Shown here one piece after another: positions 3,228-16,805 of a DNA stretch of 64,000 bases. The translations under genes were made by a program, and so were the position numbers. This DNA comes from an uncultured Trueperaceae bacterium (GTDB lineage: Bacteria; Deinococcota; Deinococci; Deinococcales; Trueperaceae). The notes under the pieces are model-generated. The model was not told the DNA's origin. It worked only from the letters and a program-made list of their open reading frames with translations, and ran no database searches. The DNA lies in NCBI GenBank assembly GCA_963727505.1, contig CAVSGP010000009.1, positions 384,001 through 448,000 on the forward strand. The letters run 5' to 3'. Numbering within the stretch: position 1 is the first letter of the stretch; the number at the start of each line of letters is the position of its first letter.

Positions 3228-4442
3228 TTATGCCTCTTCCGGAGTCTTTCTGTTGGTGTGGGGTGTTCCGGCTTGTTGTTGGCGGGTCCAGGTGCTGGTG
3301 CAGGGGATCTTGTCGAGGTTGGCGCGCTGCCGGTATTTCTTGGCGATGGTGGTGACTTCTTCGAGGAGGCCTTGTTCGAGGGTGGTGGGCTTCAGGCCGA
3401 GGTCGAGGAAGAGGTCGTTCTTGACGTGGAGTTCGTTCTCGGGGTCTTCCTTGCGGGGGTTGGGGACGTTCTCGATGGTGGCGCCGGTCTGTTTTGCGAC
3501 GAGTTGGGCGAGGTCGCGGACGCGGTGGGTTTCGGTCATCTGGTTGAGGATCTTGACGCGTTCGCCTTTGTCGGGGGGGTTCTCGAGCGCGAGTTGGAGG
3601 CACCTTACGGTGTCGCGGATGTGGATGAAGGCGCGGGTCTGTCCGCCGGTGCCGTGGACGGTGAGGGGGTAGTCGACGGCGGCTTGCATGAGGAAGCGGT
3701 TGAGGACGGTGCCGTAGTCGCCGTCGTAGTCGAAGCGGTTGATGAGGCGTTCGTCTTGGAGGGTGTCGGGGGTGTTGGTGCCCCAGACGATGCCCTGGTG
3801 GAGGTCGGTGATGCGCAGGCCGTCGTTCTTGGCGTAGTAGGCGAAGAAGAGTTGGTCCTGGGTCTTGGTGAGGTGGTAGATGCTGCCGGGGTTGGGGGGG
3901 TAGAGGATTTCTTGTTGGACTTTGGTGCCTTCGTCGGTGGTGACTTCGATGGGGAGGTAGCCTTCGGGGATCTTCATGCCGGCGGTGCCGTAGCCGTAGA
4001 CGCCCATGGTGCCGAGGTGGATGAGGTGGGTGTCGGTGTTGGCTTCGACGATGGCGGCGAGGGTGTTGTGGGTGGCGTTGAGGTTGTTGTTGACGGTGTA
4101 GCGCTTGTGGGCGCTGCTTTTCATGCTGTAGGGGGCGGCGCGTTGTTCGGCGAAGTGGATGATGGTGTCGGGCTGCTCGTCCTGGATGAGGGTGAGGAGC
4201 CGGTGGTAGTTGTCGGCGACGTCGAGGCGTTCGTAGTGGATGTCGCGGCCGCTGACTTGTTTCCAGGCCTTGAGGCGCTCTCCCATGGGTTGGATGGGGG
4301 TGAGGCTGCCGGCTTCGAGTTCGTTGTCGATGTTGCGGCGGCTGAGGTTGTCGATGATGGTGATGTCGTGGCCGAGCTTGCTGAGGTGGAGGCTGGTGGG
4401 CCAGCCGCAGAAGCCGTCACCGCCGAGAACGAAAACCTTCAT
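3228..4442 (-). CDS. sqdB: UDP-sulfoquinovose synthase
   Basis: GGDGFCGWPT, DNLSRR, HFAEQRAAPYSMKS, HLGTMGVYG, PGSIYHLTK, TDLHQGIVWG, RFDYDGDYGTVLNRF are SqdB/SQD1 hallmarks. Confidence 0.95.
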   Translation of the reverse strand: MKVFVLGGDGFCGWPTSLHLSKLGHDITIIDNLSRRNIDNELEAGSLTPIQPMGERLKAWKQVSGRDIHYERLDVADNYHRLLTLIQDEQPDTIIHFAEQRAAPYSMKSSAHKRYTVNNNLNATHNTLAAIVEANTDTHLIHLGTMGVYGYGTAGMKIPEGYLPIEVTTDEGTKVQQEILYPPNPGSIYHLTKTQDQLFFAYYAKNDGLRITDLHQGIVWGTNTPDTLQDERLINRFDYDGDYGTVLNRFLMQAAVDYPLTVHGTGGQTRAFIHIRDTVRCLQLALENPPDKGERVKILNQMTETHRVRDLAQLVAKQTGATIENVPNPRKEDPENELHVKNDLFLDLGLKPTTLEQGLLEEVTTIAKKYRQRANLDKIPCTSTWTRQQQAGTPHTNRKTPEEA

Positions 4443-13394: not shown

Positions 13395-13470
13395 GCCACC
13401 CTAGCTCAACCGGTAGAGCATCCGACTTGTAATCGGAAGGTTGTCGGTTCGACTCCGATGGGTGGCTCCA
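13395..13470 (+). tRNA. tRNA-Thr(TGT)
   Basis: GCCACCC/GGGTGGC acceptor stem, TCCGA-CT-TGT-AA-TCGGA anticodon arm, GTTCGA, encoded CCA. Confidence 0.96.
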
Positions 13471-13497
13471 CGACGCGGGCCTCGGCGTCCACGGTGC

Positions 13498-13583
13498 GGG
13501 TAGGTGCCCGAGTGGTTAAAGGGGACGGACTGTAAATCCGTTGGCTTTCGCCTACGCTGGTTCGAATCCAGCCCTGCCCACCA
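13498..13583 (+). tRNA. tRNA-Tyr(GTA)
   Basis: ACGGA-CT-GTA-AA-TCCGT anticodon arm, long variable arm, GTTCGAATC, encoded CCA. Confidence 0.96.
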
Positions 13584-13641
13584 GGTGCGCGGTCGTCGCG
13601 GTCGCGCCGCCCGAGAGGGCGCGCCCGGTTTCGGGCGATTT

Positions 13642-13717
<76 letters not shown>

Positions 13718-13791
13718 AGCACGGTCCCGCGTGCAGGCACGCCGCACGCGTCGGCACGCCGGGACCGGGCGATCGACGGGGTCGAAGGCGG

Positions 13792-13866
<75 letters not shown>

Positions 13867-13944
13867 AAGCGCGACCCCGAAGTCGAGTCGAGTCGCGCCT
13901 GCGGTGAGCAGGCCGGCTCGTTTCGGCTGGGAAAGGATAGAGCC

Positions 13945-15163
13945 ATGGCTAAGGGTGTGTTTGAGCGTACGAAGCCGCATGTGAATGTGGGGACGATTGG
14001 GCATGTGGATCATGGGAAGACGACGTTGACGGCTGCGATTACGTTTGCGGCTGCGGCGGCGGATCCGAGTGTGGAGATTCAGGATTACGATCAGATTGAT
14101 AAGGCGCCGGAGGAGAAGGCGCGGGGGATTACGATTAATACGGCGCATGTGGAGTATCAGACGGTTGCGCGGCATTATTCGCATGTGGATTGTCCGGGGC
14201 ATGCGGATTATGTGAAGAACATGATTACGGGTGCTGCGCAGATGGATGGTGCGGTGTTGGTGGTGTCGGCTGCGGATGGGCCGATGCCGCAGACGCGTGA
14301 GCATATTTTGTTGGCGCGTCAGGTGGGGGTGCCGTCGATTGTGGTGTTTTTGAACAAGGTGGATATGGTGGATGATGAGGAGTTGTTGGAGTTGGTGGAG
14401 ATGGAGGTGCGGGAGCTTTTGTCTTCGTATGAGTTTCCGGGGGATGAGATTCCGGTGGTGTCGGGGTCTGCGTTGAGGGCGTTGGAGGCGTTGCATGGGA
14501 ATCCGAATATGCAGCGTGGTGAGGATGGGTGGGTGGATAAGATTTGGGAGTTGTTGGATGCGGTGGATTCGTATGTTCCGACGCCGGTTCGGGATACGGA
14601 GAAGCCGTTTTTGATGCCGGTGGAGGATGTGTTTACGATTACGGGTCGTGGGACGGTGGCTACGGGTCGTATTGAGCGTGGTGGGGTGAAGACGGGGGAT
14701 GAGGTTGAGATTGTTGGGTCTTGGTGATACGCGGAAGACGGTGGTCACTGGGGTGGAGATGCATCGGAAGACGTTGTCGTCGGGGATGGCTGGGGATAAT
14801 GTGGGGGTTTTGTTGCGGGGTGTGGGGCGTGAGGAGATTGAGCGGGGTCAGGTGTTGGCGAAGCCTGGTTCGATTACGCCGCATACGGTGTTTCGGGGGT
14901 CGGTGTATGTGTTGAAGAAGGAGGAGGGGGGGCGGCATTCGGCGTTTTTTTCTGGGTATCGGCCGCAGTTTTACTTTCGGACGACGGATGTGACGGGGGT
15001 GGTGTCGTTGCCGGAGGGTGTGGAGATGGTGATGCCTGGGGATAATGTGGAGCTTGCGGTGGAGTTGATTAAGCCGATTGCGATGGAGGAGGGGTTGCGG
15101 TTTGCGATTCGTGAGGGGGGTCGGACGGTCGGTGCGGGTGTCGTGACGGCCGTGACGAAGTAG
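13945..15163 (+). CDS. tuf: Elongation factor Tu, with a +1 frameshift at 14716-14718 (assembly error or pseudogene)
   Basis: [59 protein letters not shown]; span is 1219 nt, so removing one G restores a 405-aa ORF reading [13 protein letters not shown]. Confidence 0.95.
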
Positions 15164-15249
15164 TCTTCGCCTCTTTCTCGTGCCGGGGCCCGCTGCATCA
15201 CCACGGCGGGGCCCCGACTCTGGTATGCTCTTTCGATTGGGAGACCATC

Positions 15250-15414
15250 ATGGCCAGTGACGTCCGCATCAAACTGCTTCTCGAGTGCACCGAGTGCAAG
15301 CGCCGTAACTACACGACGCACAAGAACCGGCGCAACAGCCAGGGCAAGCTCGAGCTCCGCAAGTACTGCCCCTGGGATCGCAAGCACACCGCGCACCGTG
15401 AGGTGAAGGTCTAG
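15250..15414 (+). CDS. rpmG: 50S ribosomal protein L33 (absent from the ORF track)
   Basis: Manual translation [54 protein letters not shown]; position between tuf and secE. Confidence 0.96.
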
Positions 15415-15424
15415 GCCGGCCCGT

Positions 15425-15607
15425 ATGTTCAAAGGATTCGTCAACTACCTGCGCAACTCACGCGCCGAGCTCGGTCGCGTCACCTGGCCCACCCGTAAGG
15501 AAGTGCTTCAGGCGACCGAAGCGACGCTGTTGTTCGTGGTGCTTACGGCGCTCTTCCTGCTCATCGCGGACGCCACGTTGGGGAACCTCATTGGCCTCCT
15601 CACCTGA
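15425..15607 (+). CDS. secE: Preprotein translocase subunit SecE
   Basis: ELGRVTWPTRKE followed by one TM helix; synteny. Confidence 0.93.
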   Translation: MFKGFVNYLRNSRAELGRVTWPTRKEVLQATEATLLFVVLTALFLLIADATLGNLIGLLT

Positions 15608-15679
15608 GGTCGACGCCCCACCCCGTCGCCGCGGCCAGGGTTCCGGCGCGGGGGCTCACGAGACGAGGTATGGACCCGA

Positions 15680-16237
15680 ATGAGCATCGAGTGGTACGCC
15701 GTCCACACCTATGTGGGCCACGAGGAGAAGGTGAAGGAGAACGTGATGAGTCGGGCGAAGTCGCTCGGCATTGCGGAGTGCATCTACCAGGTGGTCGTGC
15801 CCACCGAGGAGACGGTGGAGCACGCGGGCGGCGGCAAGAAAGAAGTCGTCAAGCGCAAGCTCTTTCCCGGATATATCTTCGTGCAGATGGATCTCGGCGA
15901 CAATCCCGACGAGCCCAACGAGGCATGGGAAGTCGTGCGCTACACGCCCGGCGTGACCGGTTTCGTGGGCACGGCGACGCGTGCGGTGCCGCTCTCCCCG
16001 GAAGAGGAGCTGCGGATGCTCGGCACGCTGGGCATCACCGGCTCGCGGGAAGCGCCCAAGATCAAGATCACCTTCAACGTCGGCGACATGGTCCAGGTCA
16101 CGGCCGGCCCCTTCGCCGACTTCACAGGTGTCGTCTCGGAGGTCAACCCCGAGCGCGGCAAGGTCAAGGTACTTGTCTCGATCTTCGGCCGGGAGACCCC
16201 GGTCGAGCTCGACTACTCTCAGGTCGTCAGGGCGTGA
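15680..16237 (+). CDS. nusG: Transcription termination/antitermination factor NusG
   Basis: [35 protein letters not shown] motif [19 protein letters not shown]. Confidence 0.97.
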
Positions 16238-16260
16238 GCGTGACCTCCCGTCACGATAGC

Positions 16261-16301
16261 GCGATGCCGAAGGCATCGCCCGGGATGCCTTCGGCATCCC
16301 G
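16261..16301. repeat. Doublet of palindromes that are reverse complements of each other
   Basis: GATGCCGAAGGCATC (16263-16277) and GATGCCTTCGGCATC (16284-16298), 6 nt apart. Confidence 0.8.
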
Positions 16302-16364
16302 CGCCCTCACGGAGCGTTCGAACCCCGCAGCGGGCCATGCCGGCGGGGGAGCTTAGGAGGAATC

Positions 16365-16805
16365 ATGGCCAAGAAGATCGCGGGTATCGTGAAGCTCCAA
16401 CTGCCCGCCGGAGGCGCCACGCCGGCGCCGCCGGTCGGCCCTGCGTTGGGGCAGTACGGTGCCAACATCATGCAGTTCGTGAAGGAGTACAACGCCACCA
16501 CGGCCTCCCAGGCCGGCGCGGTGATTCCGGTCGAGATCACCATCTTCGCCGACCGCTCCTTCACGTTCATCACCAAGACGCCGCCGGCCAGCTACCTCAT
16601 CAAGAAGGCGGCCGGGATCGACAGCGGCTCCGGTGAGCCGCACAAGGTGAAGGTCGGCAAGATCAGCTGGCAGCAATGCCTTGAGTTGGGCGAGCAGAAG
16701 ATGACCGACCTGAACGCGGGCAGCCCCGAGGCTGCGGCGCGTATCATCGCCGGTACGGCGCGCTCGATGGGCGTCACCGTGGAGGGAGCGCCGACCGATG
16801 GCTAG
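16365..16805 (+). CDS. rplK: 50S ribosomal protein L11
   Basis: [39 protein letters not shown]. Confidence 0.97.

Follow-up and report, generated by a model that had tools for sequence, protein, structure and literature searches.

The tuf gene for EF-Tu in an uncultured Trueperaceae bacterium (NCBI GenBank assembly GCA_963727505.1) is written almost entirely in codons that end in G or T. Extreme tracts of this kind, in which the sense strand is rich in keto bases (G and T) at the expense of amino bases (A and C), occur four times in the genome: in two copies of tuf and in two copies of recA. The pattern has definite limits, is inherited among relatives and is restricted to the converting parts of these duplicated genes. 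We tie it to a sense-strand keto bias that accompanies gene conversion between paralogues, a reading to which we assign a probability of roughly one half. The window, by which we mean the whole stretch of DNA that was analysed, comprises 64,000 nucleotides of contig CAVSGP010000009.1 (G000:C9:384001-448000 in our labels for genomes and contigs); the genome amounts to 3.26 Mb in 15 contigs with 70% G+C. Codon usage was followed as GT3, the share of a gene's codons with G or T at the third position.

The first tuf copy occupies positions 13945..15163 (+ strand) of the window, and its entire coding sequence is a keto tract. It encodes a protein of 405 amino acids when a one-base error at 14720, described below, is discounted, and the Pfam domains GTP_EFTU, D2 and D3 follow in order across the two pieces of the interrupted frame. 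In a codon count read through the one-base error, 397 of the 405 sense codons end in G or T; the eight exceptions (codons 48, 92, 137, 267, 343, 395, 399 and 402) end in C in each case and in A in none. Codons 1-47 are G/T-ending throughout, with TAC at codon 48 as the first exception, and at the genome mean GT3 of 0.459 the chance of 47 consecutive codons of this kind is ∼1e-16. Three of the eight exceptions fall within the last 11 codons (codons 395-405; 15127..15160, + strand), where GTC, GTC and GCC return, so that the fade of the skew at the 3′ end is real. It shares its polarity with recA, where the skew ends (near codon 300) before the identity of the copies does. The tract has a G+C content of 0.55-0.59 (0.57) compared with 0.62-0.70 in the flanks and 0.70 in the genome, its sense strand contains 43% G and 14% C, and in the composition profile the GC skew climbs only from ∼13900. 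An earlier interpretation of the window made without database searches (the sequence-only reading) had described the run of 47 codons closed by TAC, the onset at the ATG with a fade near the 3′ end, and the canonical tRNA-tuf-rpmG context. The sequence and the codon count agree with the first, the confinement of the tract to the coding sequence and the clustering of exceptions in the last 11 codons with the second, and the tRNAs found by ARAGORN and the neighbours assigned by Pfam with the third.

Across 2,489 genes taken as open reading frames, GT3 has a mean of 0.459 and a standard deviation of 0.056, with T-ending codons at ∼7% of third positions genome-wide. The highest ranks are held by the tuf pieces (0.91-0.96) and the two recA genes (0.79-0.82), followed by the next gene at 0.70. 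A scan of G+T content in 65,142 segments of 300 nucleotides (mean 0.500, standard deviation 0.040) gave seven extreme tracts, namely the two tuf copies, the two recA copies, an epimerase gene with the opposite sign and two short minor tracts. Four of the seven are copies of tuf and recA. Genes with normal usage include nusG (0.47), rplK (0.50), rplA (0.47), rpoB (0.45), rpoC (0.45) and groEL (0.44), and the claim that the tract runs against the codon usage of other highly expressed genes is borne out, with rpoB, rpoC, groEL and the ribosomal protein genes at 0.42-0.50.

The second tuf copy (G000:C9:647858-649076) is located between fusA and rpsJ and is 99.7% identical to the first over 1219 nucleotides. 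The identity extends from the ATG to the last sense codon, save for a patch at 14720-14752, and the flanks are unrelated. fusA, directly upstream of this copy on the same strand, has a GT3 of 0.48, and rpsJ, downstream, of 0.42. For both tuf and recA the paralogues are closer to one another within the genome than orthologues are between species, and the identity ends where homology ends; the skewed tracts are two long-lived gene pairs under concerted evolution. The suggested tie to a duplicated and homogenised gene therefore holds, with the second tuf copy identical over the coding sequence and the duplicated recA likewise skewed. The wider formulation, a process acting on repeated DNA, stands only in part: the tuf and recA pairs are affected, but the homogenised pairs of one relative (G012) are unskewed, and other near-identical repeats of 4819, 1267, 711 and 554 nucleotides in this genome have a G+T content of 0.50-0.56 without skew. 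A skew acting on repeats in general was rejected because of these unskewed repeats. Replication strand was also rejected as the symmetry breaker. GC skew per contig places the leading strand on the + strand of C9 and the − strand of C2, and both tuf copies and the recA of C2 are co-directional with replication while the recA of C9 is head-on, so that the two recA copies are oppositely oriented to the leading strand defined in this way. No rule for the relative orientation or spacing of the tuf copies was found among the relatives' placements listed. A search of five complete relatives for G or T at every third base over 30 codons returned hundreds to thousands of matches per genome and strand, the same as a reversed control, because other codon periodicities also fit the pattern.

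The consensus sequence of tuf is upheld by independent data. Words of the tuf stretch are contained in 20 listed public runs from 11 studies, and contigs of four runs from four studies were aligned to the gene; the G/T-rich sequence is present in the contigs of all four runs, and three X2 contigs (403, 284 and 324 nucleotides) on the tract show no differences. The window does contain an error, a patch at 14720..14752 (+ strand) with an apparent frameshift. All four runs are without one base at 14720 and differ from the assembly at 14722 (T>G), 14725 (T>G), 14743 (G>T), 14746 (C>G), 14749 (T>G) and 14752 (G>T). Five of the six differences between 14722 and 14752 are third-position swaps between G and T, and this patch is the sole place at which the two tuf copies of the assembly differ. 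Since all four runs omit the base at 14720, the frameshift comes from an error in this assembly and tuf itself is intact, with the 405 residues that had been predicted on repair of the frame. The error patch might suggest that the tract as a whole is an artefact of assembly or polishing. This is refuted by the four runs from four studies and by the relatives' assemblies, one-contig genomes included, which show the skew, and the artefact can be set aside as practically incredible.

The duplicated recA serves as an internal control. The two genes lie outside the window at G000:C2:79570-80721 and G000:C9:351351-352673 (both − strand) and encode full RecA proteins according to Pfam. They share an identical core of 943 nucleotides (100%; C2:79671-80613 and C9:351401-352343, both − strand) with copy-specific N- and C-terminal coding sequence on both sides. 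GT3 in consecutive blocks of 30 codons is 0.63, 1.0, 0.97, 0.93, 0.90, 0.90, 0.80, 0.93, 0.77, 0.93, 0.53, 0.43 and 0.67, with values of 0.77-1.0 in the core compared with 0.43-0.67 in the copy-specific N-terminal ∼15 codons and the C-terminal parts. The skew begins where the copies become identical, near codon 16, and the core shows the same silent-site shifts as tuf in weaker form. Pairs from four genera (G003, G100, G145 and G055) have the same profile. The copy-specific N-termini belong to two types that are orthologous across genera, which makes the duplication old and its ends unskewed throughout; G012 and at least four further genera also have the two paralogue types, which makes recA in Trueperaceae a case of long-lasting concerted evolution. 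Where recA is duplicated in lineages with skewed tuf (genera g1, g7, g10, g21, g24 and g31) it is skewed (GT3 0.80-0.89), and where it is single-copy it is unskewed despite a skewed tuf (0.52 in G011, 0.45 in G024 and 0.56 in G025). The recA ends are transcribed and translated with the core yet are unskewed, so that causes acting on a whole transcript, such as transcription-associated mutation or selection at the mRNA or codon level, do not fit. The GT3 of fusA (0.48), which adjoins tuf copy 2, argues in the same direction.

Within tuf, keto bases are preferred to amino bases at every class of silent site, with the odds shifted ∼20- to 300-fold. At four-fold sites the keto:amino odds rise from 0.89 in the genome to 47.7 in tuf, the G:C odds from 0.84 to 37.7 and the T:A odds from 1.3 to 91. 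The T:C odds in codons ending in a pyrimidine (NNY) rise from 0.119 to 18.6, the G:A odds in the purine-ending (NNR) codons of Lys, Glu and Gln from 6.4 to more than 120, and the TTG:CTG odds for Leu from 0.14 to more than 47 (TTG 23, CTG 0). The G:T odds remain roughly unchanged (5.6 in the genome and 3.7 in tuf). Four-fold sites in tuf are occupied by G at 0.78 and T at 0.21; in the tuf of G017, T reaches 0.47 with A at 0.01. The C>T and A>G mutation process put forward in the sequence-only reading is not shown by these numbers: the shift is a uniform one to G/T from A/C, including C to G at four-fold sites, with G:T near the genome's own value. A uniform keto shift fits a fixation bias at least as well as it fits deamination.

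The loss of A does not simply follow from high G+C. A-ending codons account for 0.33-0.91 of the Lys, Glu and Gln codons in most unskewed tuf genes, with a low exception (0.07-0.10) in genus g12 of family f3, whose unskewed, strongly C-ending tuf has C at 0.85-0.86 of four-fold sites. The same share spans 0.02-0.41 in intermediate tuf genes (GT3 0.65-0.77) and is 0.00-0.05 in most of those with GT3 of at least 0.78, with up to 0.12 in G182 (locus L182) and G155 (L155). Among eleven strongly skewed Trueperaceae tuf genes, 1703 of the 2161 pairwise four-fold differences are exchanges between G and T; the sites thus keep turning over, within the keto class. G- and T-ending codons of one amino acid use different tRNAs and Leu codons follow the rule at their silent first position as well, so that the bias concerns bases rather than decoding. 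This bears on translational selection, according to which G/T-ending codons would be those best decoded for these particular mRNAs, for instance under stress-altered tRNA modification. The translation of tuf and recA matters under stress, and codon-biased translation of stress genes is known in other systems, but the free interchange of G and T argues against any tRNA-based selection, NNT and NNC codons are read by the same tRNAs, and the other highly expressed genes and the recA ends are without the pattern; we regard this explanation as very improbable. The keto pressure also reaches the EF-Tu protein. On the branch leading to this genus, ten replacement changes are towards keto, three towards amino and two neutral, and codon positions 1-2 become richer in keto bases as GT3 increases (from 0.48-0.50 to 0.50-0.53), with a Spearman coefficient of 0.88 that is overstated as the 15 rows are related and non-independent.

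Two further explanations place the cause in the sense strand itself. Under a mutation bias, the sense strand would be single-stranded, in a transcription bubble, in an R-loop or where long-lived ectopic D-loops displace it, and would be deaminated there (C>T and A>G). The direction fits, as amino bases on the non-template strand would give way to keto bases. Transcription of tuf is presumably very high, the D-loop version would stay within the homologous tract, and Thermus-like genome sizes in several skewed lineages may be a sign of thermophily. The plain transcription-associated form should span the whole transcript and grade with expression, but the skew does not cover a transcription unit: fusA (0.48), the recA ends (0.43-0.67) and the rpoB, rpoC, groEL and ribosomal protein genes (0.42-0.50) are normal. 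The four-fold shift is mainly from C to G and not to T (G 0.78, T 0.21), and A is purged at least as fully as C; adenine deaminates far more slowly than cytosine. The copy-private variants of the recA pair in G145 that can be polarised (GCG>GCC and CGT>CGC, both silent, and ATG>CTC, Met to Leu) go towards C, an anecdotal observation with n = 3. A mutation bias of this kind is in our judgement distinctly unlikely.

Direct selection for a keto-loaded sense strand would give a preference that is uniform over all kinds of silent site with free exchange between G and T, as is seen here, and the occurrence of G/T-coded EF-Tu genes in many phyla (see below) is in its favour. Possible reasons for such selection are an mRNA or single-stranded DNA kept from folding on itself (a Watson-Crick pair joins a keto to an amino base), escape from C-rich Rho loading sites, and a pairing preference of RecA that keeps the copies homogenised; RecA prefers GT-rich DNA. 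The copy-specific ends of recA and the adjoining same-strand fusA are nevertheless unskewed, the ribosomal protein, rpoB, rpoC and groEL genes show nothing, and single-copy recA is normal in lineages with skewed tuf. Avoidance of Rho predicts loss of C and gain of G, not T far above A (four-fold T:A odds from 1.3 to 91; T 0.47 and A 0.01 in G017). Very strong selection per silent site would also be required. We therefore rate direct selection as unlikely.

The skew extends beyond this genome and is clade-wide. The tuf DNA was matched in 30 of 31 genomes of relatives and, within the order, in 142 of 151. The GT3 of tuf is 0.95-0.98 in this genus, 0.95-0.99 in five further genera of Trueperaceae and 0.65-0.88 in others, while a second group of Trueperaceae genera lies at 0.37-0.57. 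In family f4 it is 0.78-0.83 in all five measured genomes of genus g13 and 0.49-0.80 in the sister genus; family f3 ranges from 0.27 to 0.78 and family f2 from 0.35 to 0.55. The values among relatives thus form a continuum from 0.27 to 0.99. The tuf pairs of G003, G012 and G024 are 100% identical within each genome, compared with 80-98% between species. In EF-Tu protein trees of 18 and 53 rows the sequences cluster by family, with a support of 95-97 for the f1 (Trueperaceae) clade, and the skewed tuf genes of f3 and f4 fall among their own relatives. At least two to three gains or losses of the skew are needed on the 18-row tree and seven on the larger one. The skew was accordingly inherited by descent rather than spread by transfer of one allele, and a tree that follows taxonomy excludes transfer between families, in agreement with the earlier judgement that horizontal transfer fits poorly.

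The tracts could nonetheless be thought foreign, imported by homologous recombination from a donor with such codon usage; the sharp boundaries and the G+C content of the tract (0.57, below the 0.70 of the genome) would suit such an origin. The taxonomic order of the EF-Tu tree, with its f1 support of 95-97 and the skewed f3 and f4 genes among their kin, the unbroken range of GT3 values in related genomes (0.27 to 0.99) and the canonical contexts of the genes all speak against it, and we know of no donor with such usage genome-wide. Foreign origin is, on this evidence, extremely unlikely. As a separate observation, tuf in Trueperaceae genus g23 (G136 and G094; loci L066 and L063) has A at 0.61-0.68 of four-fold codon ends and T at 0.70-0.75 of NNY codons, unlike all else measured.

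Skewed EF-Tu genes are also found in contigs labelled with many other phyla. One genome per species was scanned for an 11-codon EF-Tu motif spelled with G/T-ending codons, which gave at least 119 stretches; the record titles among the matches listed include Gemmatimonadota, Actinomycetota, Acidobacteriota, several Proteobacteria, anammox Planctomycetota, Chloroflexota, Thermodesulfobacteriota and others. Eighty loci were taken, 46 of which have at least 100 codons, and ∼36 of these 46 have a GT3 of at least 0.75; a set of loci chosen by motif shows recurrence and not frequency. Two equal-scoring tuf copies are present in all five tested skewed genomes of other phyla. One match (L117, GT3 0.82), a gene with the G/T-coded bacterial EF-Tu motif, is on a 3.4-kb contig of a metagenome-assembled genome titled Methanomethylicota archaeon, and we suspect this contig to be a binning contaminant.

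In the reading that we favour, tuf, and in Trueperaceae also recA, exists as two paralogues held identical by gene conversion, and within the converting stretch only, a persistent strand-specific bias would act towards keto bases on the sense strand wherever the protein permits, strongly enough to outweigh the genome's own codon preference. We infer that the bias arises in a recombination intermediate between the paralogues. Two processes separate keto from amino bases. One is deamination in single-stranded DNA, which turns C into U and A into hypoxanthine, and the other is the distinction between G.T-type and A.C-type mismatches in a heteroduplex. A candidate mechanism would start from a heteroduplex of fixed polarity relative to the gene, in which mismatch repair might treat keto-keto (G.T, G.G, T.T) and amino-amino (A.C, C.C, A.A) mismatches differently, with the consequence that conversions that place G or T in the sense strand would go through more often than those in the opposite direction. 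Such a heteroduplex would account for the boundaries of the tract, the uniformly shifted odds, the unhindered exchange of G and T and the spill-over into amino acids. In the accessible text of a study of tuf in Salmonella, unequal efficiency of mismatch repair across mismatches is invoked to explain which positions convert (PMC5485169).

Several observations weigh against this reading. The recA skew ends near codon 300, while the identity continues to about codon 329-336; it stops ∼30-35 codons short of the end of identity alike in four genera. The unskewed last 30-35 codons of the identical recA tract and the sharp 5′ onset sit outside the explanation. In G012 both tuf and recA are duplicated and homogenised (1218 and 972 nucleotides at 100%) and both are unskewed, and genomes of family f2 have near-identical tuf pairs without skew; conversion alone is thus not enough. 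The recA copies face opposite ways with respect to replication (C9 head-on, C2 co-directional), and a polarity fixed relative to the gene is a step that we purely infer. All copies share a single orientation, the direction of transcription, yet transcription by itself leaves the limits of the skew unaccounted for. Since most of the phyla in question carry tuf in duplicate, two copies in five of five genomes discriminate little, and the sample holds no lineage with a single-copy tuf. Judged by duplicated and single-copy recA and by G012, gene conversion looks necessary but not sufficient for the skew. A factor that varies between lineages sets its strength, probably a balance against translational selection, which would explain the continuum of GT3 from 0.27 to 0.99.

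The mismatch endonuclease NucS was the sole candidate enzyme tried. EndoMS/NucS of C. glutamicum is described, in the part of the source available, as cleaving G/T, G/G and T/T mismatches in vitro (PMC6159521), a specificity that is exactly the keto-keto class. This genome encodes NucS (G000:C6:77545-77862, 87.5 bits), as do 26 of 44 Trueperaceae genomes, and within this family its presence goes with higher GT3: 0.65-0.99 for tuf in the NucS-bearing genera compared with 0.37-0.72 in those without a match. In family f4, NucS was found in none of 43 genomes, yet tuf GT3 rises to 0.83; among the 43 are 24 of 24 genomes of genus g13, each of which has a tuf match of ∼80-82% identity or a measured GT3 of 0.78-0.83. 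In family f2, 21 of 44 genomes carry NucS and all seven tuf genes measured are unskewed (0.35-0.55), four of them from NucS-bearing genomes. Five skewed genomes of other phyla gave no strong match to NucS and one weak partial match (30 bits). A comparison of NucS and skew over independent pairs on the tree yielded four supported pairs and was not significant. Judged by f4, f2 and the other phyla, NucS is neither necessary nor sufficient, which counts against our reading, and NucS is at most a modifier of the skew.

A more general proposal, which we offer only tentatively and think rather less than probable, is a strand-asymmetric drive by gene conversion in bacteria, in which a fixed polarity of the intermediate and unequal resolution of keto-keto and amino-amino mismatches would ratchet the sense strand to G and T at free sites. 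If true, it would be visible as keto-coded tuf in many phyla, and here also as recA, wherever translational selection is too weak; it would join mutation bias and GC-biased conversion as a third non-adaptive bias in fixation, one that can recode a cell's most highly expressed gene with the rarest codons of that cell.

The surroundings of tuf in the window are unskewed. A cluster of tRNA genes located by ARAGORN (Thr-TGT, Tyr-GTA, Gly-CCC and Thr-GGT; 13395..13866, + strand) lies upstream in the canonical tufB-type context, and rpmG, secE, nusG and rplK (15250..16805, + strand; Pfam L33, SecE, NusG with KOW, and L11) follow downstream as same-strand controls (GT3 0.47 for nusG and 0.50 for rplK). 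The open reading frame listing includes an antisense frame of 398 amino acids (13552..14748, − strand) with a low-complexity product rich in R, H, P and Q. It was rejected as a gene owing to its low complexity and to the lack of any Pfam family at E <= 0.01, and is a by-product of the tuf skew, open because the A/C-rich antisense strand seldom spells stop codons. The word CTCGTTTCGG (13917-13926), ∼20-30 nucleotides before the start codon, is common to the otherwise unrelated upstream regions of both tuf copies (copy 2 is locus L015) and may be a common regulatory or ribosome-binding element. At 15239, just upstream of rpmG, the contigs of two of the four public runs carry a 9-base insertion, GGAGACCAC, and secE shows many substitutions; both are variants of this operon in strains from other samples.

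The tract of opposite sign belongs to a single-copy NAD-dependent epimerase/dehydratase gene (Pfam PF01370; window 3231-4442, − strand), which we take to resemble UDP-sulfoquinovose synthase and which is located ∼10 kb from tuf both here and in G003. Its codon usage is a mirror image: third positions are C at 0.76, A at 0.12, G at 0.11 and T at 0.01, C occupies 0.91 of four-fold sites, NNY codons end in C in 127 of 127 cases and Leu is CTC in 40 of 42. The A+C share of 0.88 is the highest in the gene set. The skew is also present in relatives of the same genus (0.70-0.91) and is weaker in other genera, and it looks like the extreme tail of the genome's ordinary preference for C-ending codons. 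Elsewhere in the assembly, contigs C10 and C3 are collinear over ∼44 kb at 85-94% identity and may represent two related replicons or a second strain that was binned in.

In textbooks tuf exemplifies the gene with optimal codons, and here it is written in the rarest codons of its genome with no sign of decay. If the skew is linked to conversion, recombination between paralogues can overpower translational selection and create islands of composition that gene finders, detectors of horizontal transfer and codon-based predictors of expression would misread. It would also leave an imprint on the amino acids of one of the most conserved proteins, with a bearing on tuf and recA as phylogenetic markers. 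The recA gene, with its unskewed copy-specific ends, is a rare built-in control that separates a stretch that converts from a gene that is transcribed and translated. Thermus shows a milder form of the skew and is genetically tractable, which makes the question directly testable.

We found neither a report nor an explanation of G/T-only coding of tuf or recA in the published full-text literature, a search that left supplements and early papers on Thermus tuf sequences outside its scope. Concerted evolution of tuf is reported for six phyla, Deinococcus-Thermus among them, in the accessible text of a survey (PMC6053082) in which the term 'recA' is absent, and a dependence of tuf conversion on RecA with modulation by mismatch repair is, according to the available portion of a second paper, known only from Salmonella (PMC5485169). 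The conversion of tufA and tufB in the Salmonella and E. coli model resembles the present case in that each copy has a context of its own (tRNA-tuf-rpmG-secE-nusG and fusA-tuf-rpsJ), the identity coincides exactly with the coding sequence and the copies are far closer within a genome than between species. The parts of the papers on these systems that were available (PMC6053082 and PMC5485169) mention no strand-specific G/T recoding of the converted tract, whereas the odds here are shifted 20- to 300-fold. GC-biased gene conversion is similar in that a bias in fixation, linked to the repair of heteroduplex, resembles selection and can outweigh codon preference. It differs in favouring G and C on both strands and raising G+C, whereas the present bias is towards G and T on a single strand, removes C and lowers G+C (0.57 compared with 0.70); a symmetric G+C enrichment is absent from the tract (0.55-0.59, with 0.62-0.70 around it). 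Strand asymmetries linked to replication or transcription are familiar as the GC or keto skew of leading strands, the G+T-rich heavy strand of vertebrate mitochondrial DNA and the C>T excess on non-transcribed strands. As here, they convert amino into keto bases on the strand that is more often single-stranded, but they are weak, regional or genome-wide, and graded, whereas the present skew is near-saturating, is confined to the converting parts of two genes and is found alike in head-on and co-directional recA. Repeat-induced point mutation in fungi, finally, shares with it a change of sequence aimed at duplicated DNA, but acts on both strands without regard to frame and destroys genes, whereas here the proteins are intact and conserved, and other repeats are untouched (G+T 0.50-0.56).

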